From NCBI GenBank assembly GCA_030770535.1, contig JASVEC010000001.1, positions 1,488,001-1,552,000 of the forward strand: DNA of 64,000 nt. Direction: 5' to 3'. Every line of letters starts with the position of its first letter. Positions within the stretch are counted from its first letter, which is position 1. The position numbers were made by a program, and so were the translations under genes. This DNA comes from Batkoa obscura (Eukaryota). Below the pieces are notes generated by a model. That model was not told where the DNA came from. It made no database searches and was given only the letters and a program-made list of their open reading frames with translations. Positions 911 through 55,657 of this stretch are shown here, piece after piece.

Positions 911-1621
911 ATGAACTCAAAATTACTCTTAGCTTTATTCATTCAATTAACCCTTAGTCGTTCCATTGCTTTGAATCGACGTCACGAGAATGAGGATCAT
1001 GGTAGTATGAGTATCATGCCAGTTAAAGAAGACATTAGTCCAAGTGGAAATAGTAATGAAAATGCTGCTGTTCCACATGAAACTAAATTTAGTAGTAATC
1101 CAATTGTTAATTTACATGAAGATAAATATGAGATGTATACGAATCCTAATGGTATTTATAAGTGTAAAGCGGAATATCCAGAAGATGGAAAAAATCCAAA
1201 CAATCAACAACAGAATCAAAGTCAACAACAAAGTCAACAGAATAGTGGAGAAACTCAAAACAATCAACAACAAAACCAAGATCATCAGCAAAGTCAACAA
1301 AATCAACAACAAAGTCAACAAAACAAAAGCCAAACCCAGAATAACCAACAACAAAACCAAAATATTCAACAGACTCAACAGGTCCAACAACAAAATAGTG
1401 GACAAACTCAAAATAATCAAAATAATCAAAATACTCCACATCCAGAGCATTACGATGGACATCAAATGAATAATGAATCACGAAATAAAGATAGTTACAC
1501 ATCAACTAAAACTCCTACACCTTTACCTGAAAAGAAAACTAGTTTATTAAATGGAATACCCGTAATCGGTAATATAGCATCCTCTTTGGGAATCGATTCA
1601 TTGTTAGATGGGATCTATTAA
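911..1621 (+). CDS. Secreted Kex2-site precursor, PIVG-tail family member 1 (His/Met N-terminus, Q/N-rich, amphipathic C-tail)
   Basis: Single-exon ORF, 236 aa. Signal peptide MNSKLLLALFIQLTLS, LNRR|HENEDH, YTNPNGIYKCKAEY, Q/N-rich tract, ends LLNGIPVIGNIASSLGIDSLLDGIY. TATAAATA ~160 nt upstream. Clear paralogue of 2133. Confidence 0.9.
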   Translation: MNSKLLLALFIQLTLSRSIALNRRHENEDHGSMSIMPVKEDISPSGNSNENAAVPHETKFSSNPIVNLHEDKYEMYTNPNGIYKCKAEYPEDGKNPNNQQQNQSQQQSQQNSGETQNNQQQNQDHQQSQQNQQQSQQNKSQTQNNQQQNQNIQQTQQVQQQNSGQTQNNQNNQNTPHPEHYDGHQMNNESRNKDSYTSTKTPTPLPEKKTSLLNGIPVIGNIASSLGIDSLLDGIY

Positions 1622-2132: not shown

Positions 2133-2774
2133 ATGAACACCAAATTGATTTTAGCATTATTCATTAATTTAACTTTAAGTCGTTCAATTGATTTGATTCG
2201 ACGTCATGGAGATGAAGATCATGGTAGTATGAGTAATATGCCAATGAAACAAGATATGGCTACAAATAACAACGGTAATAACGGTGTTATTCTAAACAAC
2301 CCAAATACGGCTACTCCACATACCACAATGTTGAATACTGATGCTAATATCCAAGTTCAAGAAGAGAATTACCAAGTTTATACTAATCCAAATGGGATTT
2401 ATAAATGTAAAGCTACTTATCCAGAAAGTGGAAGTAATCAACCGATTGAACAAAGCCAAAATAATCAGCAGACTCAACAACAGAATCAGAATAACCAACA
2501 GAACCAACAACAAAACCAGAATAATCAACAACAAAGTCAACAAAATAATGGACAAACTCAAAATAATCAACAGACCCAACAGCAAACCCAACAAGCTGGA
2601 CACTCGGATAATCATCAAATAGATACTCAACAGCAGCCCAAAGGTAATTATAGCCCTAATAAGAGTGGTAAAGCCATACCTGAAAAGAAAGGAGGGATGC
2701 TAGGGGGCTTACCTATTGTTGGTGATTTAGTTTCATCTTTAGGATTAGATTCTTTATTAGGTGGTATACTTTAA
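2133..2774 (+). CDS. Secreted Kex2-site precursor, PIVG-tail family member 2 (tandem paralogue of 911)
   Basis: 213 aa. Signal peptide, LIRR|HGDEDHGSM, YTNPNGIYKCKATY, Q/N tract, ends MLGGLPIVGDLVSSLGLDSLLGGIL. TATAAATA near 2018. Confidence 0.9.
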   Translation: MNTKLILALFINLTLSRSIDLIRRHGDEDHGSMSNMPMKQDMATNNNGNNGVILNNPNTATPHTTMLNTDANIQVQEENYQVYTNPNGIYKCKATYPESGSNQPIEQSQNNQQTQQQNQNNQQNQQQNQNNQQQSQQNNGQTQNNQQTQQQTQQAGHSDNHQIDTQQQPKGNYSPNKSGKAIPEKKGGMLGGLPIVGDLVSSLGLDSLLGGIL

Positions 2775-9242: not shown

Positions 9243-10808
9243 ATGAATTATATAATCATAATCCTATTCTGTTTCCTTAATACTCTTGATAGTAAAGTCC
9301 ATTATTATTCATGGGAAGTTAAAGATCAAGATATTGCTGTGGATAATTTTAATTTTGAAGGTATAACTATTAACGGAGTTTATCCAGGTCCTACTATTGA
9401 AATTGAACAACATGATCAAGTTAACATATTAATTAATAATCGAAGTCATCGAAATATAACTGTTCATTGGCATGGAATTGAACAGAGAAATAGCAATAAT
9501 ATGGATGGTGTACCTGAATTAACCCAAGCAAGGATATTAACAAATAGCTCATTTAAATATCAATTTAACGTATATAAACAAAGTGGAACTTATTGGTATC
9601 ATGCTCATACTGATCTAGATATTCAAGTAATTTACGGGGCATTGATTATCAAAGAAAAGTTTTTAAAAGAATTAATTGAATACAATGAAAACTATTATTA
9701 TGATGAGGAATTTACTTTAATTTTAAGTGAACGTTGGCATAAAAATACCAGCTTAATTTATCATGATTTATTAAATCCACCCTTTCAGTTTCCATTTCCA
9801 TCCCAATCTATCTTAACTAATGGTAGAACTTTTGATATTTGGGAAAATAATACTAACACTAAAGAAAAGGATTTGTTTAATGAGGGTTATTATGTACAAA
9901 ATGTAGATTTTAATAAAATTTATCGGATTCGAATTATTGCAGCTAATGGACTATCTAATTTAATTTTTGAAATTCAAAATCATATAGAATTCAAAGTAAT
10001 TGAAGTAGATGGCACTTTAATTGAACCTATATTAACTAATCGAATTGAATTACATCCAGCACAAAGATATTCTATATTAATTAAAATGAATCAACCTATT
10101 AGTAACTATTATATGATGACTAGAATTACAGGTAGTAGTAATAATCCTCTATTACCTAATAATGGAGTAGCAATATTACATTATAATGGAGCAGAACCAA
10201 CAAATGAATTGAAGAAAAAGTTGTATGTGCCTGAGAGATTAAATTTGACTGAAAATTTATGGATTTTACCTAAATTAAAAAATTCACGATTTTATCAAAG
10301 TAATTGTATCGATGTTCAAGATACTCATATTTATCAAGTACCTAAACAAATTGACCAAGAAATTGTTATTAATATCACTAATGGAATAGCTAATAATGTA
10401 CCTAAATTTCTAATTAATAATCAATTGGAAGATAAAACTTATTTTATAAGAAATAACACTAATATACAAATTATATTACAACATTTTCAACCCATAGGAA
10501 GTAATTGCGTTACCCATCCTTGGCATTTACATGGTCATTCTTTTTATGTAGTTTCCAATGGTACTTTACCTTATAATCCTTCTATTGACTCAATCAAAAT
10601 TCAAGATACTATTTTATCTCATAAAAAGAATCTTGTGTTACAAGATACATTTACTCATTTTGCTAATCCAAGAACTGTGGGAGATATTATTTTCTGTGGT
10701 TGGTATGCCATCCGACTTAAAGCTGATAATCCAGGAAAATGGTTATCTCATTGTCATATTAATCCTCATTTAGTAATGGGTAAGAGTTTTGTACTAAATT
10801 ATAATTGA
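9243..10808 (+). CDS. Secreted multicopper oxidase (laccase/ascorbate oxidase-like)
   Basis: Signal peptide and four Cu motifs: HWHG, WYHAH, HPWHLHG, HCHINPHLVMGK. Confidence 0.95.
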   Translation: MNYIIIILFCFLNTLDSKVHYYSWEVKDQDIAVDNFNFEGITINGVYPGPTIEIEQHDQVNILINNRSHRNITVHWHGIEQRNSNNMDGVPELTQARILTNSSFKYQFNVYKQSGTYWYHAHTDLDIQVIYGALIIKEKFLKELIEYNENYYYDEEFTLILSERWHKNTSLIYHDLLNPPFQFPFPSQSILTNGRTFDIWENNTNTKEKDLFNEGYYVQNVDFNKIYRIRIIAANGLSNLIFEIQNHIEFKVIEVDGTLIEPILTNRIELHPAQRYSILIKMNQPISNYYMMTRITGSSNNPLLPNNGVAILHYNGAEPTNELKKKLYVPERLNLTENLWILPKLKNSRFYQSNCIDVQDTHIYQVPKQIDQEIVINITNGIANNVPKFLINNQLEDKTYFIRNNTNIQIILQHFQPIGSNCVTHPWHLHGHSFYVVSNGTLPYNPSIDSIKIQDTILSHKKNLVLQDTFTHFANPRTVGDIIFCGWYAIRLKADNPGKWLSHCHINPHLVMGKSFVLNYN

Positions 10809-21137: not shown

Positions 21138-22217
21138 ATGGTACAGAAGGAAATTTTGATGAAAACATTTGAGGTCATTTTTATTGCTACTTTGGCTGCA
21201 TTTTCACAAGCAGCACCAGCTGATAAAAATTCAACAAAATCGAATGATACCCCATCTAGCAAAGTTATCAATGGCTCTGACGGTTCATGGGTAAACTATC
21301 CATCCTTGGTTTCATTACGTGTTAATGGAGGACACTCCTGTGGTGGTGCTCTCCTGAATGCTAATACTGTTTTAACTGCTGCTCATTGTTCCGAACGTTC
21401 TCCTGGCTCTGTCTCTGTGTGGGCATATGCTGGCGGAAACCTACAAAGACGCCAATGGCTGCCACAAGAGCAGCAACCACAAATTCCACAAGGACAACAA
21501 CCACAAATGCCATGGTTACCACAAGAGCAACAACCACAAATGCCATGGTTGCCACAAGAGCAGCAACCACAAATTCCACAAGGACAACAACCACAAATGC
21601 CACGGTTACCACAAGAACAACAGCCACAAATTCCACAGGGACAACAGCCACAAACGCCACAAGAACCGCAGCGACCACAACAAGGCCAAGGTCAAGGACA
21701 GGCTAAAAGTGGACCAGATGGCTCATACACCGAGCATCGAGTGAGCCAAATCATTAAGCACCCTAGTTATAGCTCAGCTGGCTTTATTGAATATGATGTT
21801 GCGATATGGAAATTAGCAACCCCAGTTAGTACACGTAATTTTTACCAAATTGATACCCAAAATACAGGTGATCGCGAAGGTACTTCAACAAAATTTGCAG
21901 GTTGGGGAAGAGTTGATTCAAACGATCAACAAAAATTAGCTTCAAAACTTCAGGAAGCTAATCTCCCTGTATATTCTTTTGAGTCTTGTAATGCTGCTTA
22001 TCGAGGTTTGACCAAGTCTCATCATTTGTGTGCTGGTTATCGTGAAGGCCGCTCATCTGTTTGTCAAGGTGATTCTGGAGGTCCACTTGTTATTGATAAC
22101 ACTATTATTGGTGTTACTTCTTTTGTTAAGGACTTAAAATGCCTTAATCCAGACTATCCTTCTGTATTTGCACGTGTAAATACTTATGCTCAATGGATTC
22201 AACAAAATAGTAGCTAA
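21138..22217 (+). CDS. Secreted S1 (chymotrypsin-family) serine protease with internal Q/P-rich insertion
   Basis: Signal peptide (start may be 21159), activation site K|VING, HSCGG, LTAAHC, YDVAIWKL, CQGDSGGP. The residue-189 equivalent is Ser, so specificity is probably non-tryptic. Confidence 0.95.
   Translation: MVQKEILMKTFEVIFIATLAAFSQAAPADKNSTKSNDTPSSKVINGSDGSWVNYPSLVSLRVNGGHSCGGALLNANTVLTAAHCSERSPGSVSVWAYAGGNLQRRQWLPQEQQPQIPQGQQPQMPWLPQEQQPQMPWLPQEQQPQIPQGQQPQMPRLPQEQQPQIPQGQQPQTPQEPQRPQQGQGQGQAKSGPDGSYTEHRVSQIIKHPSYSSAGFIEYDVAIWKLATPVSTRNFYQIDTQNTGDREGTSTKFAGWGRVDSNDQQKLASKLQEANLPVYSFESCNAAYRGLTKSHHLCAGYREGRSSVCQGDSGGPLVIDNTIIGVTSFVKDLKCLNPDYPSVFARVNTYAQWIQQNSS
21453..21701 (+). repeat. 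Coding minisatellite (33-nt WLPQEQQPQ(I/M)P and 24-nt QGQQPQ(M/T)P units)
   Basis: Tandem units visible in DNA and protein between the catalytic His and Asp motifs. Confidence 0.9.
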
Positions 22218-24493: not shown

Positions 24494-26221
24494 ATGGGTT
24501 TGAAATCTATTCTCTGCGCATTCCTTTATCTTTCAGCTTCAATTAATGGTCAATGTAATACCGTTTATCAAAGAAAAGAAATAAGACAGCTAAGTAGTGC
24601 TGAAATCCAAGCATTTTTTCAAGCTGTGAGAACATTAAATTCTGGTAATCAACCCAGCAAATATGCCAGTTTTGTTAAAACTCATTTAACTTATGCTCCA
24701 AATAACCACGGTACTGCTAACTTTTTAATATGGCATCGCTTGTTTTTACGTGAGTTTGAGAAAGCATTGCAAGCTATAAATCCAAATGTAGCGTTACCTT
24801 ATTGGAATTGGTCATATGATTCTCAAGCTCCAGAGTTAAGTGGTGTCCTTTCAGATAACTACTTTGGTGGCGAAGGTACTGGTCAAAACAACTGTGTTAC
24901 TAAAGGCCAATTTGCCAACTGGGAATGCTATTATGATTATAATATTAATGCCAGTCCGCATTGCTTAGCTCGTAAGTTTAACGGAGGTGATGGAACAATA
25001 TCTGCCTTTTATTCCCCAGAAGCTATCCAATCGCTTATTACAAACTCGAAAACTTATGATCAATTGAGACAACAAATTGAATACGCACCGCACGGTTCAG
25101 TTCATAATGGAGTTGGTGGCGATATGCAAACAATGGCTAGCACTAACGACCCCTTATTTTGGCTCCATCATGCTTTTATTGATAAAATATACCATGACTG
25201 GCAGCAAGCAAACCCAAGTTTAGCTAATGTTATTAACGGCAAAAATCAAAACAACCGTGATGTAAGTCTTAATGACGTACAAGTACCTTTTAATGTTCCT
25301 TCTTCTGCGGGCTTAGACATTAACTCCCTCTGTTATGTTTATATCCAAGATGGTGTTGATATTACCAAACCACCTCAAGTTAATAATACAATGCCTAATC
25401 CTACTTCTTCCTCTTCAAGTTCAAGCGCCACTCCTACTTCTACCTTACCCTCCTCAAATTCAAGTGTCGGATCGTCTTCAAGCTCAGGCAGTAGCTCCTC
25501 TACTACTTCTGGATCAAACACTTCTACTTCTACTTCTTCATCCTCTGGTCCAGCTTCATCTACTCCATCATCGAGCACTAGTAGTCATGGATCTTATCCC
25601 ACTTATAGTCCTTATATTCCTATTCCAAGCTATTTACCAATCAAATACAATCAGCTCAATATTAACATTACAATCGGAGTTGGTGTTCCAATTTATAACA
25701 ACATTCCTATCACAGGACCGAGCTACAATGATCGTCAAGATCCATACAAACTAAGGTTGCCTAAACCATTGCCCGAAAGTTGGGCTAGAATGAACAATTA
25801 CCCATTGACTTTGGTACGTGAACAAGAATCTAAGTTAGCTCAAATTATTTCCGCTTATAATCAAATTGGATTTAAATCCCCAGTTTGTTTAGCCAAACGC
25901 CCAGATCTTTCTTCTCATTTAAGTATCAAATTACCAATCATTAATTTTCCCATTCTCAAGCCCCTCCCCTTTGCTCATCCTAATTATAATCCTAATATCA
26001 GTCTCCCAGATAATGATAATAGCTATCCTACTTCTACTTCAGATTATAATACTTCTCCAACTTCTGCTTCAGATTATGACTCTAATTCCCCAACAAGCAC
26101 CCAAGATTGTGATCAAACTGTGTCCACATCATCCAAGCGTAAGCATAAGAAGCATCATACTAAGCATCAGGCTAAGTCTAATAATCAACCAACATATGTT
26201 TTGCCAATTTATGGATATTAA
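24494..26221 (+). CDS. Secreted tyrosinase (type-3 di-copper) with Ser/Thr-rich linker and C-terminal extension
   Basis: Signal peptide, RKEIRQLS, CuA H...HGTANFLIWHR, CuB HGSVH...DPLFWLHHAFIDK. Confidence 0.95.
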   Translation: MGLKSILCAFLYLSASINGQCNTVYQRKEIRQLSSAEIQAFFQAVRTLNSGNQPSKYASFVKTHLTYAPNNHGTANFLIWHRLFLREFEKALQAINPNVALPYWNWSYDSQAPELSGVLSDNYFGGEGTGQNNCVTKGQFANWECYYDYNINASPHCLARKFNGGDGTISAFYSPEAIQSLITNSKTYDQLRQQIEYAPHGSVHNGVGGDMQTMASTNDPLFWLHHAFIDKIYHDWQQANPSLANVINGKNQNNRDVSLNDVQVPFNVPSSAGLDINSLCYVYIQDGVDITKPPQVNNTMPNPTSSSSSSSATPTSTLPSSNSSVGSSSSSGSSSSTTSGSNTSTSTSSSSGPASSTPSSSTSSHGSYPTYSPYIPIPSYLPIKYNQLNINITIGVGVPIYNNIPITGPSYNDRQDPYKLRLPKPLPESWARMNNYPLTLVREQESKLAQIISAYNQIGFKSPVCLAKRPDLSSHLSIKLPIINFPILKPLPFAHPNYNPNISLPDNDNSYPTSTSDYNTSPTSASDYDSNSPTSTQDCDQTVSTSSKRKHKKHHTKHQAKSNNQPTYVLPIYGY

Positions 26222-32094: not shown

Positions 32095-33411
32095 ATGAAT
32101 TTAACTGGTTTAAAATTACTATCATTATATTTACTTATAACTGAAGCCAGTTCTTCACCATTGAGTTTATATCGTCGCCATGGAAATGAAAATCATTCTA
32201 CTATGTCCAATATGAATAATAATAGTCCAATGGAATCAAATAATGATGCTGGACATCCAATGATGTCTAATATGGCTACTAATCAACCATGTGATCATTC
32301 TAAGTTACAGCGTCGTCATGGGGAGGAAGACCATTTATCAATGCCTGGTATGGAAATTATGGCTAATATGGAAGACATGCCAAATATGAATAACAATACT
32401 CCAATGGAATCTCAGTCTAACCAAGGCCGCTCTAATATGCCCAACATGGGTACCAAACAACCATGCGATCACTCTAAATTACAACGTCGTCATGGTGATG
32501 AAAATCATGCCAATATGCCAAATGAAGCGTTTATGCAAAATATGGATACTATGGAAGATATGTCAGATATGCCAGATATGCCAGGAATGGAAAATATGGC
32601 TACTGATAGTGCCCCAATGGAAAGTACCATGATGTCAGGTGATGCTTCAATGGAAAATATGTCCAATATGCCAAACATGGATCAAAATACTCAAATGGAT
32701 AGTAACATGATGTCCGGTGATGCCTCAACGAAAAACATGGCTGATAGCAATGGCCCAATGTCTAATATGGCTGCTTTCAGTGCTCCAATCGAATCTCAAG
32801 CTACTGAAGACCATTCAGCTATGCCAAATATGGGTATTAAAACTCCATGTAAACATTCTAAATTGCAACGTCGTCATGGAGATGAAGACCACTCTGTTAT
32901 GCCAATGCCCAATAAGGCTGCTCCACAAGATCATTCTAATATGCCAATGCCAAATAATGCCCCGATGCCAGCTGTTACTATGTCAGATAAAGTTGAAAAT
33001 TATCCAATTTATACTAATTCTAATGGGATTTATAAATGTAAAGCAGATTATGGGACTGATAATATGAATAATAATCAAAATAATAACAATAACAATAACC
33101 AAAACAATAACAATAACCAAAACAATAACAACAACCAAAACAAATATCCTACCAATCCTAATTATGATGGCGGTAATCAAAATAACAATAAATATCCAAC
33201 AAACCCAACTTATAACAATATTGATGAATCTAAACAATCCCAAGATCAAAAAGCAGATACTCAAATTGGCCATGGTACTGTTGAGGAAGGAAAAAAGGGA
33301 ATTGATATGTCTAAAATGAAAATGCCAGCTGTTAAAATTCCAATAGTTGGAGATCCGTTATCCATGGCTGATCCCAGGTATTTATTAAAATGGATTGTAC
33401 CTAAGATTTAA
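32095..33411 (+). CDS. Secreted Kex2-processed repeat polyprotein (4x RR|HGxExH, Met-rich), PIVG-tail family member 3
   Basis: Signal peptide, LYRR|HGNENH, then three PCxHSKLQRR|HGxExH junctions, YTNSNGIYKCKADY, poly-N, VKIPIVGDPL. Confidence 0.92.
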   Translation: MNLTGLKLLSLYLLITEASSSPLSLYRRHGNENHSTMSNMNNNSPMESNNDAGHPMMSNMATNQPCDHSKLQRRHGEEDHLSMPGMEIMANMEDMPNMNNNTPMESQSNQGRSNMPNMGTKQPCDHSKLQRRHGDENHANMPNEAFMQNMDTMEDMSDMPDMPGMENMATDSAPMESTMMSGDASMENMSNMPNMDQNTQMDSNMMSGDASTKNMADSNGPMSNMAAFSAPIESQATEDHSAMPNMGIKTPCKHSKLQRRHGDEDHSVMPMPNKAAPQDHSNMPMPNNAPMPAVTMSDKVENYPIYTNSNGIYKCKADYGTDNMNNNQNNNNNNNQNNNNNQNNNNNQNKYPTNPNYDGGNQNNNKYPTNPTYNNIDESKQSQDQKADTQIGHGTVEEGKKGIDMSKMKMPAVKIPIVGDPLSMADPRYLLKWIVPKI

Positions 33412-39321: not shown

Positions 39322-39660
39322 TTACATTAACCCACCGACGATAGGGATATCTTCAAGACCTAAAGAAGACATAAGTCCACCCTTAGAACCCCCATCTGAG
39401 CCTGAACCTCCATATTCTTTACCATTCTTTTCATCAGCTTTTTGATTGTATTCATTGAGTACTTGAGCTGGATTTTTACCACCCATCATGGCCATCAGTT
39501 GTGGAATTAAGGCCGTAATACCTGGATTGTTACTACCACCTGGTAAATGTCCATGTTCTTGATGAGTTTCAACAAACGATTTACGACGTTCTAACTGGAT
39601 GGCGGCTCCATTTGTTAAAGAAATGATAGTAGTGATAAAGATAAAGGAGGAAAATTTCAT
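39322..39660 (-). CDS. Small secreted precursor, PIVG-tail family member 4
   Basis: 112 aa from ATG 39660. Signal peptide, LERR|K, His cluster THQEHGH, ends GGLMSSLGLEDIPIVGGLM. Confidence 0.85.
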   Translation of the reverse strand: MKFSSFIFITTIISLTNGAAIQLERRKSFVETHQEHGHLPGGSNNPGITALIPQLMAMMGGKNPAQVLNEYNQKADEKNGKEYGGSGSDGGSKGGLMSSLGLEDIPIVGGLM

Positions 39661-43353: not shown

Positions 43354-43671
43354 TTATAGTATTAATCCTTGAGTTCCAAACCAAGAGCCAATATTTAACA
43401 GTGATAGCACATCACCAACAATGGGGATATTAAAGCCACCACCATCTCTTTTGACTAGAACCCTTTTTTTAATATTCTCCTTTTCTAACCCTTTTTCATT
43501 ATTTATGAATAAAGCGACAGCAGCATCATTATGAAAAGTGATTCTATCAATAGCTTCTTTGGGTACGTTATTGAAACCGTCTTGTTTTAAATTACCTAAT
43601 TCCGCTGGAAAACAATTAATTATACTCAAAGGAATAGCCGTTAAAAGTAGCTGATTTACACCAAACCTCAT
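43354..43671 (-). CDS. Small secreted precursor releasing a 30-aa hydrophobic peptide, PIVG-tail family member 5
   Basis: Signal peptide, pro-region, LVKR|DGGGFNIPIVGDVLSLLNIGSWFGTQGLIL*. TATAAATA upstream. Confidence 0.85.
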   Translation of the reverse strand: MRFGVNQLLLTAIPLSIINCFPAELGNLKQDGFNNVPKEAIDRITFHNDAAVALFINNEKGLEKENIKKRVLVKRDGGGFNIPIVGDVLSLLNIGSWFGTQGLIL

Positions 43672-46625: not shown

Positions 46626-46899
46626 ATGAAATTATATCATTTAATTAATTTACTTGTTATCAATGCTTTTACTTTACAACCTAGAGCTAACGTAAGTCAA
46701 CTGTTTTAATATACTATCCCTTCAAATGTACTAATGGCTTTTTCTCTAGTCCAATGCTTTAATCAATCCTAATTTTTTACCTGAATCTACTCAACAAGTC
46801 AAAATTCCCATGTCTAAATCCAATGGTAATGGACAACTATTAGCTAGCTTACCCATTGCTGGTGGACTATTGAAGAGTATGGGATTAACTTTTTTATAA
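46626..46899 (+). CDS. Small secreted precursor, PIVG-tail family member 6 (spliced; absent from ORF track)
   Basis: Exons 46626-46691 and 46750-46899; intron GTAAGT...TACTAAT...CTAG. 71 aa: MKLYHLINLLVINAFTLQPRANSNALINPNFLPESTQQVKIPMSKSNGNGQLLASLPIAGGLLKSMGLTFL. TATAAAAG upstream, AATAAA downstream. Confidence 0.8.
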
Positions 46900-47053: not shown

Positions 47054-48922
47054 TCAAGCATAAATATTATTAATTGTAGTAGAAGATACAATTGATATCA
47101 ATTTTGAAGGTACTAAATCTCTAGAATAATTGACATCAGGACAAGTAAAAGATAAAGAACAATAATTAAATGGACGAGCATAAAAAGAACATAATAATAA
47201 ATTAAATTTTAAGGGACAAGTTTCTACTTTTAAATTTAAATCAAAAATGGATTTTTTCTCAGCAACTTCCAATCGGTTCTCTTTTTGACAAAAGAAATAA
47301 TTGGATTTATCTGGATTATTAATACTTTTTAATGTATAACTCTTGGGACATTTTAAAGTAATACTATTATCTAATAGTTTTACTTCACTATTTTTATAAA
47401 TTAAAAATAATAAATCTTTATCTAAACAATAATATCTTGATACATTAAATGCGTCATTAAATTGAATTAATAATTGATAATCATAACATTTCAGTCCATT
47501 TTTACTAACAATATTATATTTATAAATTGGACATTTATCCTCTTTTAAACAAAGATAATAACTTTTAAAATCATTAAAAAAATTACCTTCACATTTACTA
47601 GGTTTATGATCCATAGGACATTTATCTAATCCTATATTGAAATCATAAAATCCATTTGCTTTATTGTTATATTCATTCAATTGACAATAAAAATAATTAA
47701 TTCCTTTTAAATTACTAAATACTCTTAATCGATACCCAACATCACATCCTTTTTCTAATATCAGTTTTAATTCTTGATTTCCCGTTTGCATTAAATTGTT
47801 AACATCTTCTTCTTTTAACAACTTAATATCTTTTCCTGAATCTATTGAATTGGGCGTTTTATCTTTTGTAATTACAAATAACGTATTATTTACTGTCTTA
47901 ATTTCATTACCTATTCCACTACCTTCACTAAATGTACCAGTAATTAAAGATAATTTTGATTCATCCTCTTTAGTTTTATTAAGTTTCGTATTATTAGCAT
48001 TGGTTGGTGTTACTATTGTTGTATTGTTAATGGCTATTGCAGCTGTTGAATTAATCACTGTTCCTTTTTTAGAATCCGTTTTAGATGTATCATCGTTCAC
48101 TCCACCTTTCTCTCCTTTATCTAAAGAATTACTAGAACCGTTATCTTTCCCACTTTTATCTGAAGTAATATTATTTACAACCTTAGCTACTGCAACTTCA
48201 GCTAATGTAATATCACTAGAATTAGTTGAACTATTACCACTAGTCTTATTAATTGAATGATTATTATAAATTAAGGAATCTTTATCCTCTTTTCCTTTGA
48301 TGTTATTATTATTATTATTGTTATTATTATTGTTATTATTATTGTTATTATTATTGTTATCAAATTTCTCTTTTTTATTATCTTTTCCTAAACTACCTTC
48401 AATATAACCTTCCCCGCCAAAACAATCTTTATCTTTATTATTACAAATAGCATTTAATTCACATAAATAAATTTGTTTATCTTTTAGTGAAAATTGATTT
48501 AATCTATAACCTATTGGACATTGTTCTATTTTGGGATCAAATATAGATAAATTAACATCTGAATGAATATTAGCACTCTTTCTACATCGATAAAATTTTT
48601 GATTCAATTCATTTAAAGATAATATTAATGAATAACCTAACTCACATTTAGGCTCTCCTAATATTATTGGAACTGAATTACTTTTATCATTGTTATCTAA
48701 ACATTTAGCTGTTTGTAATTGTTTATTAACAATTAAACTTAAAACGGTATTTTGTGGACATTGTAAGGGAAAAGATAATGGGCATATGAGTTGAGTGGTA
48801 CAGATGGAAGCTTGTTTTCCACTATCAAAATCCAAACAGTTTTGTAAACGTTGATCAGAAGGGCAATGAAAAGCGGCTTTGTAAAGTAAAATATTAGTTA
48901 ATAATAACAAGAGTAATTTCAT
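47054..48922 (-). CDS. Secreted Cys-rich repeat protein (C-x18/19-C modules, poly-Asn and S/T/N linker)
   Basis: 622-aa ORF with signal peptide, repeated CxxGY.L...Y.C modules and an (AAT/AAC)n poly-N tract. Confidence 0.85.
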   Translation of the reverse strand: MKLLLLLLTNILLYKAAFHCPSDQRLQNCLDFDSGKQASICTTQLICPLSFPLQCPQNTVLSLIVNKQLQTAKCLDNNDKSNSVPIILGEPKCELGYSLILSLNELNQKFYRCRKSANIHSDVNLSIFDPKIEQCPIGYRLNQFSLKDKQIYLCELNAICNNKDKDCFGGEGYIEGSLGKDNKKEKFDNNNNNNNNNNNNNNNNNNNIKGKEDKDSLIYNNHSINKTSGNSSTNSSDITLAEVAVAKVVNNITSDKSGKDNGSSNSLDKGEKGGVNDDTSKTDSKKGTVINSTAAIAINNTTIVTPTNANNTKLNKTKEDESKLSLITGTFSEGSGIGNEIKTVNNTLFVITKDKTPNSIDSGKDIKLLKEEDVNNLMQTGNQELKLILEKGCDVGYRLRVFSNLKGINYFYCQLNEYNNKANGFYDFNIGLDKCPMDHKPSKCEGNFFNDFKSYYLCLKEDKCPIYKYNIVSKNGLKCYDYQLLIQFNDAFNVSRYYCLDKDLLFLIYKNSEVKLLDNSITLKCPKSYTLKSINNPDKSNYFFCQKENRLEVAEKKSIFDLNLKVETCPLKFNLLLCSFYARPFNYCSLSFTCPDVNYSRDLVPSKLISIVSSTTINNIYA

Positions 48923-50104: not shown

Positions 50105-52595
50105 TTACGTATGAAATCCATCCAATTCTACCTCCCTATCTAACATATTACCATTGGCATTAAACGATCCATTAGCATGTTGTTTATTCTTAATACTTTC
50201 CTTCGTGACAGGACCTGAAATAGCTCTACCACCTAAGGCACCTGGATTTCCATATGGGAAAGTAGAAGACATAAATTCTTTCTTTTGTTTAATAATAGTA
50301 CGGGTAGTACGTATAGGTTCTCTTTCAGGTAAGATAGCTCCTCGACGACCAGCTCTTTGTTGTCTTCTTGTGCGTCGATTTTCTCTTTCCTGGATTTTAG
50401 TTTGGCGTTGTAATTCAACTTCACTTATTTCCACTAAAAAGGGAGTAAAGCTTTCAGTCGCATTTTTATCTCGAATGGTATGCGTTATAGGTGGTAAAAA
50501 CGATTTGCTTAAATTCACATCATTTACCGAATCCCCAGTGAAATTGTAGCCTAAGATACTTAATGATTTATGAAAGGTGTAAACTTGCTCCCGTATTGAG
50601 TGTGCAATCGCTGTTCTATTATAAATTTAGTATTTTCTTTTTTTAAATAAAATAGTGACTTACTTAAATTCACCACCAAGCCCAAGATCATTTGCTAAAT
50701 TCGAAGCAAATAATTCGGGTGAATTTAAAGGATTTAAAATATCCCACTCAAACTGATCTTCAAGTGAGACTCTACCTAGGGTAATATCCAACTGAAACAA
50801 TCATTAAGATAAAAAAATTTAATGATTATATTATACTTACCTTAATTAAAATTCTCAGTTCTTCTTCAGCTTCATAACTTTCTTTTTCTTTTTCTTTTTC
50901 TTTTTTAATTTTAAATTGTTTAATTTTTTTATGACAATATAAACCATGTGTCCTATAATCTTTAATTTGATCTTTTATAGAAGTTGAAACGGGATGAAAA
51001 AAAGCTTGATGTGGTAATTGTAAATCTTTTAACATAGTTTCAACAAATAAATCCACTGATATAAATTCATCATTTAAATTCCATACAAATGTATCGCATA
51101 ATCGTTGTCCACCTACTTCTAAATCTAATCGAATGGGTACTAATATCTCTTCTTGTTCCGCTATATCTTCTAATTGTTTTGTTAAACTGAAGATTTTGTT
51201 AATGATTATAAATAAACAATAGTATAAAATCTTACTGGGGTGTATTTCTAAAGAATATAGGTCCTTCTTCAATATCATAGCATAATACACGACTATTTTT
51301 GGATTCACCCGCTTTAAAATATTTAAATTTGTTTGGATTTAAACCAAGATTTGGATTTAAATTTCCTGCCATTTTAAGTTTATTACCAGCTCCCTTTTCT
51401 AAATAGATTTTTTTATTGATTTCATTTTGTGCTACCCCCATTGCTTGATATTGGGTATCTTTATAACGATATAAAGCTACCCTTTTTTGTAAATGTTTGG
51501 AACTTTCATATCGAATCGCATCTTCTGAAAGTTCTACTTTGACTTTACTTTGTATTCCAATTGTAGATGGATTTTGCTATAATTGTTTATTTAATGATAT
51601 ATAAATAGATTAAATTGATATTTACCATAGCGTTATTGAGCTCGGTAGGTACATTATTTATATTTTGAACTTGAAACTCTTCTTTTGTAGGAGTTTGAAG
51701 ATTTAGTGGTCGAACATTTCCAAAATTCATCACTTTTTTCCCTTCTATTAATAATGAGTCAACATATTATTAGTGCTTTATAGAGTTAAATCTTACCATT
51801 TTTGGCCCTTTGGTTGTAAAGTTTAGCTTGATTTTGCATATCTCTTACTGCAAGCTGAGATTTAATGGCCTTAAAAATATAAGTTTAATGTTTTATAATA
51901 ATGGTTGAATTACTTGATTTATTAAATTGGAGTCTTTATTTTGATTTTGGGGGGGATTATTTGGTATGTTAGGATTGATAGCATAATTCATATAATTGAT
52001 AGGTTGTTGATACATATAGTTATTTGCTTGTGAAATATTAAAATTGGGAGGAAAGTTTTGGGTTTGGGGGTTCATGTTAATTGGGATTTGATTTAAAATT
52101 GGTTTATCATTATTCATGGAAATATTATTATTACCCATATTACTAACATTGGGATCAGCTGGATTCCAGTTTTTAATGGGATTGTTTTGTGCTATATTAC
52201 CACCGTTGACATTCATAGTATTCCCTCCCATATTATTCATCATATTCATTGCATTCATTTGATTATACACTCCCATTCCCATTGCGTTTAAGTTGTTTGG
52301 GTTCATTCCACCCATATTTTGAAGTCGGTTTCTCAATGCTAACTGATTCAAGCTAATTTTATTATTATTTAATTATTTGTCATTTAAAACATTATAAAAT
52401 AGTAGCTACTTACTTAAAGTTATTCATTTGAGCTTGGTTCATATTCTGAAAGTTAATATTTGGCATATTATTAAATGGACTCATATTTGATTGCCCTTGC
52501 ATCAAGTTATTTTGGAAACCTTGGTTACCTTGATTCATGGGACTAAACTGTACATTTTGTTCATTTCCAATGGGTAGATTGTTATTCTGTTGCAT
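50105..52595 (-). CDS. SNF5: SWI/SNF chromatin remodelling subunit Snf5
   Basis: Multi-exon. N/Q/M-rich N-terminus, EEILVPIRLDLE..DTFVWN (repeat 1), LEDQFEWDI..SPELFASNLANDLGLGGEF..AIAHSIREQV (repeat 2), RENRRTRRQ. Both ends uncertain. Confidence 0.9.
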
Positions 52596-54222: not shown

Positions 54223-54724
54223 TTTTTATTTTGTAAAAATGGGGGATAAGTTGGAATTCAAATTTTTTTTAGTACCAAAGGCTTGAATTATGGGAAATTT
54301 TAAAACAGAGTTTGTTAAATTTTTAATATTGATGTTTTGAATTCAACAAAAAAGCATTTTTTTTGGTGGAAGTTCAGATTCTAAAATAAACTTATCTTTA
54401 TTATAAAATCGTATAAATAGAAGGGTTTCTGATGCTAAAATACAAATCCATTCATTTACATTGGAACTTAAATAATAAACTTCAAAAATAGCTTTTCATA
54501 TCAAATTTATTAGAAAACTATATAAAACATCCTTCCACTTTAAGCAACTTTTTGAAAAATTTCGCTTGTTTCCAAAAAAGATAAACTCTCTCAAAGATCA
54601 TCAAGCTCCAAAAAAAAGCAACTTTAAATTTTCGATAGTCATGTCTATCCCGCTTATAAAACCTTTAATTAAATATACTATCCATATAAAAAACCTTATC
54701 CGCCTCCTAAACTTCGCAAAAAAA

Positions 54725-55657
54725 ATGCTAAACCCTAGTTTATTTTTAACCCTAGTTACCGCTACCCTAGCCCTTCCTTTCTCTGCTGAAGACATAGACA
54801 CAGCCCCATGTCCAAAAGGTACAGTAATGACGGGATATAAAGGCCCAGATGATGTTGTTTATTATGCTTGTACTGCTTTTGAGGATAAAGTTAATAACAA
54901 AATGATGGATGAGTGTCCAATTGGTACAGTTAAAACCGCCAAAGTAGAAAACAATGAAAAGGTGTTTGGTTGTGTATCTTTAAATTCTATAGAAGCTGAA
55001 AATGAATGTCCAAGAGGGACAGTATTAACAGCTACAACACTTAAAAACGGTGAAAACGCGTATTTATGTCAGAAATTTACAAGCGAAGAAGAAAAAGAAA
55101 GCAAAGTTGAAGATAAAACCAAGAAATGTCCAGATGGGTTGATGTTAAAAGAAAGTAAGGGTGAAGATGGAAAGATCAGTTTAAGTTGTATTAGTAAACC
55201 AGCGAAAGAAAGTGAAGCAAAGATTGATTTTTCTATCAATCCTTGTCCTAAGGGAGAGCGATTGTTTAGCAGTAAAAATAGTGAAGAAAAGGAAAGCCTT
55301 GCTTGTGTTTCAGAAGATATAGATTTAAATTTGGAAGAAAGTAAAAAGCTTTGTGGTAAAGGTGAAAAGTTGGTTAATGATAAAGACACTAAGGGTAGGG
55401 ATATGTTTACTTGTAAAGCATATTCTGCTAGCGCTCAGCTTGGTTTGAGTGGGAAATCATTAGAAGTTAAAAAAAAAAGCAATAATGTTCAAGCTAAAGC
55501 TAATGAAACTTTACAAGAAGTCAAGAAAGCAGTAGGTTCTGATGATGATGCAATAGTGGTACAAATTGTTAAGCCGCCTATCCAAGTAATAAACTCTGAC
55601 CTTAAGGAAGGGGAAGTGGTACGCAAAGTTGTAGTCACTAGAAAAGTGATTAATTAA
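54725..55657 (+). CDS. Secreted Cys-rich repeat protein (six CPxG-x15/16-C modules)
   Basis: ATG 54725, signal peptide MLNPSLFLTLVTATLA, six tandem C-x18/19-C units. Confidence 0.87.
   Translation: MLNPSLFLTLVTATLALPFSAEDIDTAPCPKGTVMTGYKGPDDVVYYACTAFEDKVNNKMMDECPIGTVKTAKVENNEKVFGCVSLNSIEAENECPRGTVLTATTLKNGENAYLCQKFTSEEEKESKVEDKTKKCPDGLMLKESKGEDGKISLSCISKPAKESEAKIDFSINPCPKGERLFSSKNSEEKESLACVSEDIDLNLEESKKLCGKGEKLVNDKDTKGRDMFTCKAYSASAQLGLSGKSLEVKKKSNNVQAKANETLQEVKKAVGSDDDAIVVQIVKPPIQVINSDLKEGEVVRKVVVTRKVIN

Follow-up and report, generated by a model that had tools for sequence, protein, structure and literature searches.

A predicted Kex2-processed repeat protein of Batkoa obscura with His-headed, Met-rich units and a candidate role in copper binding

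A one-exon gene of Batkoa obscura encodes a 438-residue precursor (P0001) whose architecture, judged from its sequence, is of a known kind, the KEX2-processed repeat protein (KEP). Its His and Met content is unusual, and a copper role is well motivated and predicted. We propose that the precursor would release moderate-affinity, high-capacity sponge peptides for Cu(I) and Cu(II) at the cell or spore surface, and we place the probability of this reading at about one half. Some physiological copper binding by the system is probable; the three readings that involve copper overlap on this point. The window is the 64,000-nucleotide stretch of DNA that was analyzed, and all positions refer to it (Table 1).

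Thousands of KEPs are predicted and most are functionless so far. Metal binding is absent from two KEP surveys in the main-text portions used here: the word "metal" occurs in neither PMC6339444 nor PMC7329392, and "copper" does not occur in PMC7329392. In the supplements of the surveys "Conidiobolus" appears in C. coronatus rows only and the string RRHG does not appear; these rows hold accessions and counts instead of peptides, which leaves room for a similar KEP in C. coronatus. A title-level search, reaching a minority of subscription journals, found no title on this gene or on any metal-binding KEP rich in Met. Fungal copper defense, as outlined in the cited part of PMC6981102, consists of metallothioneins and export ATPases. 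If the proposal is true, fungal metal biology would gain a new tool in the form of a secreted, disordered copper sponge produced through Kex2. The setting is a little-studied group of insect-associated fungi, and the family comes from one species group only.

Table 1. Positions of the precursor, its parts, its relatives, and neighboring genes in the window.
Feature	Position	Strand	Description
Precursor P0001	32095..33411	+	One-exon ORF, 438 aa, four RR|H junctions; colinear with KAI9296351.1
Candidate signal peptide (about aa 1–20, by eye) and short pro-segment	32095..32178	+	Ends L-Y-R-R; N-terminal hydropathy 1.08; model helix 3–19
Unit 1	32179..32316	+	46 aa (44 after predicted Kex1 trimming), 6 Met, 4 His, 1 Cys, pI 5.6
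Unit 2	32317..32490	+	58 aa, 9 Met, 3 His, 1 Cys, pI 4.8; doubled in the FSU 785 orthologue
Unit 3	32491..32874	+	128 aa, 24 Met, 4 His, 1 Cys, pI 4.05; longest period-3 Met ladder
Unit 4	32875..33411	+	178 aa, ancestral-type, colinear with mature paralogues
PCxHSKLQ module ahead of RR	32287..32310, 32461–32484, 32845–32868	+	Invariant in orthologues
Family core Y-x-x-YTN-x-NGIYKCKA-x-Y	33001..33051	+	Bears the sole shared Cys; modeled as a weak beta-hairpin in the paralogue
Asn/Gln low-complexity tract	33067..33138	+	6/18/24-bp tandem repeat
IPIVG tail	33337..33408	+	Predicted amphipathic helix; by hydropathy no membrane anchor
Single-unit paralogue	911..1621	+	236 aa; orthologue is KAI9296366.1
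Single-unit paralogue	2133..2774	+	213 aa; head HGDEDHGSMSNM
Tail-module genes	911, 2133, 32095, 39322–39660, 43354–43671, 46626–46899	+, +, +, -, -, +	
Multicopper oxidase, secreted	9243–10808	+	Between paralogues and precursor gene
Tyrosinase	24494–26221	+	Between paralogues and precursor gene

Predicted processing of the precursor

The reading frame is open throughout and matches an annotated protein over its full length, so an intron is not required. Translation confirmed what the earlier note had read from the DNA: RR followed by His at 32179, 32317, 32491, and 32875, unit lengths of 46, 58, 128, and 178 residues, an H-G-x-E-x-H head on all four units, and PC(D/K)HSKLQRR as the ending of units 1–3. 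The precursor has four KR/RR sites altogether, and His is the next residue at each. The units are copies of one another, so these four occurrences are not four independent events. The N terminus passes, by eye, from basic to hydrophobic to small residues. The predicted products are 44, 56, 126, and 178 residues long with pI values of 5.6, 4.8, 4.05, and 6.1, and each has one Cys. Units 1–3 have a common layout in which H1-G-x-E-x-H6-x-x-M leads into a Met ladder, followed by (H)xxMxxM and P-C-x-H-S-K-L-Q. They are acidic, and a stretch of 268 residues of the precursor contains 2 aromatic and 9 Ile, Leu, or Val residues. An N-H-S sequon at 32191–32199 overlaps His6 of unit 1 and is retained in the orthologue; a glycan at this position could mask the unit 1 head.

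Leu occupies the P4 position (L-x-R-R) at all four sites and also at the one such site in gene 911, in gene 2133, and in each of the two Neoconidiobolus paralogues described below. In the passages cited, Kex2 requires Arg at P1, prefers Lys and then Arg at P2, and takes Leu at P4 (PMC8528282), and Kex1 strips basic residues while Ste13 removes XA/XP dipeptides (PMC9769878, PMC6339444). H-G is not a Ste13 dipeptide, so His1 would survive. The KEP definition given in PMC6339444, in the part used here, calls for at least four fragments via KR/RR, at least three similar repeats over at least 15% of the protein, and no membrane segment. The four RR sites of the precursor yield five fragments, three repeats of 46 residues cover 31% of the 438 residues (calculated by hand), and no membrane segment is indicated by a tail hydropathy of 0.55 and a remainder that is hydrophilic by composition. 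The L-x-R-R sites, the repeats, and the lack of a Ste13 dipeptide support, at the level of sequence, the earlier proposal of a Kex2 polyprotein.

The precursor shares with described KEPs (PMC6339444, PMC7329392, PMC9769878) RR-separated repeats and the lack of a membrane segment, and its candidate signal peptide would be a further likeness. It differs from them in that its units are long, unequal, predicted to be disordered, and conserved only at the ends and at Met. Two narrower assignments were rejected. A dikaritin RiPP precursor does not fit units 1–3, which have no Tyr, and DUF3328 was absent from the 10 proteins and 50 frames scanned (exons of at least 58 aa). An alpha-pheromone precursor does not fit sites that are always followed by H-G, not XA/XP, or units of 46–178 aa as opposed to near-identical peptides of 9–24 aa. 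Ustilago Rep1 and Candida Ece1/candidalysin are likewise precursors with KEX2 sites and an amphipathic segment, but in P0001 the amphipathic tail is single and does not follow KR/RR, and the repeats are hydrophilic and acidic. Kexin domains feature in a proteome comparison of Entomophthorales, in the portion of PMC11105155 cited.

Relatives, amplification, and the tail module

The whole-protein search scored 7989 candidates, a list cut short by low-complexity words, and among these gave one match, KAI9296351.1 (P0002) from Neoconidiobolus thromboides FSU 785, a protein of 499 residues with 87% identity in aligned columns. None of nine window proteins compared with the collection has an identical entry there, which points to a source closely related to FSU 785. 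KAI9296351.1 carries five units. The additional unit is identical to the adjacent unit at 57 of 58 residues, which indicates recent amplification and a variable copy number. In the Batkoa DNA, a 128-nt block across the junction is present three times at 68–100% identity. Two single-unit paralogues, KAI9296366.1 (P0003) and KAI9296372.1 (P0004), lie on the same FSU 785 contig. KAI9296372.1 has no counterpart in the window and the searches turned up nothing close to gene 2133 in FSU 785, which points to family turnover between strains; the search with region 15–100 of gene 2133 gave one match from 3 candidates.

Unit 4 is colinear with the whole mature proteins of genes 911 and 2133, as first noticed, and shares with them the head, the YTNxNGIYKCKA core, the Q/N tract, and the IP[IV][VI]G tail. 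The suggestion that the His/Met head was tandemly amplified is supported by the extra orthologue unit, but the amplified element is more than the head. The PCxHSKLQ end is missing from the single-unit paralogues, so the repeated block combines the head with a C-terminal module that is new. H1, E4, and H6 are invariant across the six heads in the window. Gly2 is not invariant among paralogue heads, gene 911 beginning HENEDH, and the paralogues hold just 5–7 Met.

No further members came from the broader searches. The word-index searches covered proteins of up to 767 aa, and the junction region 55–145 of the precursor had no match among proteins of 30–239 aa. A profile built on the head and core that the family has in common, run against 1.84 billion representatives, gave four matches, of which two are genuine (KAI9296351.1 and KAI9296372.1); P0005 and P0006 (fish MIF4G protein) were discarded as repeat artefacts. 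Neither Pfam nor NCBIfam has a family that matches, and there is no PDB relative. A Pfam/TIGR ribosomal L36 match on the junction (E 0.003–0.3, under the cut-off) was dismissed as chance. Beyond the window the family is thus lineage-restricted and found solely in N. thromboides at this search sensitivity, at which a 12-residue head alone would escape.

AlphaFold2 gave the precursor a pLDDT of 41.2 from a 6-sequence alignment, with 398 of 438 residues below 50 and helices at residues 3–19 and 427–437 only. The paralogue model is similar (pLDDT 42.6) and has a weak hairpin at the core. The precursor is predicted to be disordered and its composition agrees, with alignments this shallow making the models weak evidence. 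The earlier note expected one tail-anchored copy. This expectation fails on a best 19-residue tail hydropathy of 0.55 and five charges among the last 20 residues, and a tail-anchored or GPI identity was rejected for the charged, weakly hydrophobic C-terminal segment of the precursor. The helical moment of its tail is 0.46. The tail of gene 2133 (hydropathy 1.54, 2 Asp) may be a weak anchor. An [IL]P[IV][VIA]G tail is common to six small secreted-type genes in the window, three of them without a His/Met head. By this distribution the tail is a mobile amphipathic module of the small secreted-type proteins of the fungus, independent of the His/Met head. It has no Pfam match, and a tail profile compared with the PDB returned nothing meaningful. 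In gene 43354–43671 (-) the tail is preceded by a KR site, so the tail could come off as a peptide of ~30 aa. Segments 46626–46691 and 46750–46899 (+) form a probable two-exon gene (GT...AG, phase 0) with a secreted-type product of ~70 aa that contains an L-Q-P-R site and the tail module.

The His/Met pattern and its likeness to metal binders

The Met and His spacing of residues 29–296 of the precursor (45 Met, 14 His) was compared with 5000 shuffles. MxxM occurs 20 times against 7.35 expected, a count that no shuffle reached (0/5000), and MxxMxxM occurs 12 times against 1.2. MxM is depleted (2 against 7.3), and MM, MxxxM, and MxxxxM, at 2–3 each, are also rarer than expected. HxxM is found 7 times against 2.3 expected and HxxMxxM 4 times against 0.39, and the count of MxxH is zero. 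The whole precursor has 21 MxxM and 12 overlapping MxxMxxM. Across units 1–4 the MxxM counts are 2, 6, 12, and 1, and the MxM counts are 0, 0, 0, and 3. The units had been described as packed with MxxM/MxM; the description suits units 2 and 3, but unit 4 is merely 6% Met and MxM is depleted. Ahead of the core, His is confined to the slots RR|H, CxH, and HxxM in 14 of 14 cases in the precursor and 20 of 20 in the orthologue. A Met/Asn-rich intracellular control ORF (51893–52315) has no His and a weak periodicity (4 MxxM against 1.5, p = 0.05).

Conservation was tested on the spacers of the one orthologue pair, which aligns with few gaps; the invariant junctions were excluded and the His columns (3/4) set aside. 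Met columns are unchanged in 43 of 44 cases, compared to 131 of 172 for other residues (Fisher p = 0.0005). Since Met has a single codon, neutral drift would be expected to strike it no less than other residues. Compared pairwise, the three internal junctions show 5 synonymous and 2 non-synonymous codon differences per 16, and the non-synonymous ones spare C, H, L, R, and E4. These sequence data indicate that the His/Met pattern is a real, selected feature of the precursor. A 9-bp array with 72% matches was detected in its DNA, and 9-bp slippage could be the source of the period-3 Met ladder. An antioxidant or sticker role would also fit the conservation of Met.

Met-rich MxxM and MxM motifs in Ctr ectodomains bind Cu(I) (cited parts of PMC9117721 and PMC6981102). 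Like the Mets motifs of the Ctr1 ectodomain, the precursor combines predicted extracellular MxxM ladders with His and with acidic side chains, but it has no transmembrane helices, no pore MxxxM, and no ATCUN motif. Identity as a Ctr copper transporter was rejected: there is no hydrophobic tail segment and no Ctr Pfam match, and of the Ctr features compared only the Mets motifs are present. The bacterial protein SilE is a disordered HxxM/MxxH sponge that binds as many as eight Ag+ but smaller numbers of Cu2+, Zn2+, or Ni2+ ions, as described in the portions cited (PMC5008109, PMC11904771). SilE and PcoE resemble the precursor in being exported and intrinsically disordered (both predicted for P0001) and His/Met-rich, with HxxM and many possible sites (PMC5008109, in the same portion). 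The precursor differs from them in being eukaryotic, in lacking MxxH and homology, in being Pro-rich and not helix-forming, and in a predicted cutting that leaves free His1 ends. The exact octapeptide pattern of the CopA/CopB type occurs twice in the precursor, with one further Asn variant, and once per head of genes 911 and 2133 and of KAI9296366.1. In CopA/CopB this octapeptide is an appendage of an oxidase or outer-membrane protein without homology to the precursor, and direct binding by CopB is reported as not shown. A tblastn search of plasmids with the head region found no CopA, CopB, SilE, or PcoE match and two chance matches (E 2 and 7). With no tblastn or NCBIfam homology, the likeness to bacterial sponges is convergent and at motif level only.

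The comparison with His-brace proteins fails on fold. These proteins (LPMO, CopC, Cryptococcus Cbi1/Bim1) have an N-terminal His freed by proteolysis, as the units of P0001 would have if cut by Kex2, and a second His downstream, as in those units. His-brace proteins are folded domains in which His1 follows the signal peptide; the precursor has a disordered model without a Pfam or PDB match, a second His 5 residues on, and four His1 ends predicted via Kex2. An ATCUN identity was rejected as well, because the His residues of the units are at positions 1 and 6 and not 3 (PMC9117721, passage cited). At micromolar levels, peptides with His at position 1 are weaker Cu(II) binders than those with His at position 2 or 3 (PMC11220758), so a sponge or relay fits better than a high-affinity scavenger. 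Both Cu(I)/Cu(II) and Zn/Ni had been considered as the metals bound; the Met ladder and HxxM favor Cu(I)/Ag(I) over Zn/Ni. Other precedents, in the portions cited, are a disordered fungal LPMO tail that binds copper via His and dimerizes via one Cys (10.1101/2025.11.04.686606), and reflectin Met motifs that bind Cu(I) and gel (10.1101/2025.08.12.669908). By motif the precursor resembles a metal sponge, and it belongs to none of the metal-binder families compared.

Proposed function and alternatives

The proposed mechanism draws on known pathway rules and on model-peptide chemistry. The signal peptide would be removed, Kex2 would cut L-x-R-R in the late Golgi, and Kex1 would trim the RR and leave His1 in place. 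The free amine and His1 would coordinate Cu(II) with help from Glu4 and His6, and several Cu(I) or Ag(I) ions would be taken up by HxxMxxM together with the MxxM ladder. The one Cys per unit would be an extra ligand or a disulfide tether between peptides or to unit 4. Unit 4 would be kept at surfaces by the Q/N tract and amphipathic tail, not by a membrane anchor. Copper reaches the secretory compartment through Ccc2-type pumps (PMC6981102, part cited); with Kex2 in the late Golgi (PMC9769878, part cited), the peptides might be loaded ahead of release. They would most likely buffer copper at the cell wall or on the surface of spores; passing the metal on to Ctr transporters or to secreted copper enzymes would be a secondary possibility, and more units would give greater capacity. 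The restriction to N. thromboides is odd for a core metal-homeostasis function. We regard as rather unlikely, though conceivable, the complete scheme of a ribosomal, protease-activated copper system without a described fungal parallel, in which Met-ladder peptides capped by His1 would bind both Cu(II) and Cu(I), be Cys-tethered to a surface-seeking unit, and export or buffer copper. If true, the SilE/PcoE sponges would have a convergent counterpart in eukaryotes whose capacity is set by the number of units.

The alternative that survives best, although we consider it unlikely, is a structural surface or adhesive protein in which the peptides and unit 4 form a coat or mucilage like that of Rep1, with Met residues as stickers and possible Cu(I) or disulfide cross-links. 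The Q/N tract, the one Cys per unit, and the amphipathic tail suit such a coat, as does the presence of the tail module in three small secreted-type genes that have no His/Met head among the six that bear it. The family is lineage-restricted, which is typical for surface proteins. Units 1–3 argue against a coat in being acidic and almost without aromatic or aliphatic residues. Amyloid-like fibrils formed by Rep1 KEP peptides (PMC9769878) and the Cu(I) gels of reflectin Met motifs (10.1101/2025.08.12.669908) are precedents in the parts of these sources used here. A coat has no need of a free N-terminal His and fixed HxxM slots unless metal is involved, and it then merges with the copper sponge.

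We hold it improbable that the peptides are sacrificial antioxidants, secreted to soak up oxidants or quinones of host defense through Met, with His and Cys secondary. Met oxidation is an established oxidant sink, the Met content is high and conserved, and the predicted disorder would leave all thioethers exposed. This role needs the Met content but not the period-3 spacing, the MxM depletion, the His fixed in HxxM, or the His at P1'.

A metallophore or delivery factor, which corresponds to the uptake role raised in the earlier note, is comparably doubtful. Such a factor would be made under shortage of copper (or Zn/Ni) and would feed Ctr or load the multicopper oxidase and tyrosinase in the manner of Cbi1/Bim1, a His-brace-type helper that assists copper uptake by Ctr1 (PMC9258870, portion cited). 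The head resembles a soluble Ctr ectodomain, and the stretch from the paralogues to the precursor contains the genes for both enzymes (9243 and 24494). These genes are ~21 and ~6 kb from the precursor, amid unrelated housekeeping genes, and the weaker Cu(II) binding of His-1 peptides at micromolar levels (PMC11220758), the lack of an ATCUN motif, and the lack of an upstream Mac1-type site (a yeast pattern) also speak against it. A copper cluster comprising the oxidase and the tyrosinase was rejected on account of the intervening ribosomal, Hsp20, P5C reductase, RRM, and TPR genes, and the neighborhood is not counted as support for any copper reading. Pheromone-like signals or a sulfur/nitrogen store, with the metal-type motifs incidental, are very improbable: the protein is Met- and Asn-rich and most KEPs have no known function while some are pheromones (PMC9769878, part cited), but there is no Ste13 signature, the units are long (46–178 aa) and unequal, and fixed Met positions are not expected of a store.

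No Ctr, kexin, or DUF3328 domain was found in 10 proteins or in 50 frames from a list of 107 stop-to-stop frames; the remainder of the list comprised those scanned before and most of the alternative frames that overlie identified genes. Upstream of 911, 2133, and 32095 there is no Mac1 or Zap1 consensus as defined in yeast, a weak test in this fungus, and the 500-bp upstream regions of these genes share no 8–10-mer with at least two G/C. Across the window, Ace1-like and GATA matches are frequent (52 and 330). The window also encodes, at 47054–48922 (-) and 54641–55657 (+), two Cys-repeat proteins of secreted type that match no Pfam family. The tyrosinase at 24494–26221 ends in a short Lys/His-rich stretch that follows KR. 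A trypsin-like protease at 21138–22217 (+) has a Q/P-repeat insert of ~80 aa within its catalytic domain, and the insert begins directly after an L-Q-R-R Kex2-type site at residues 102–105.
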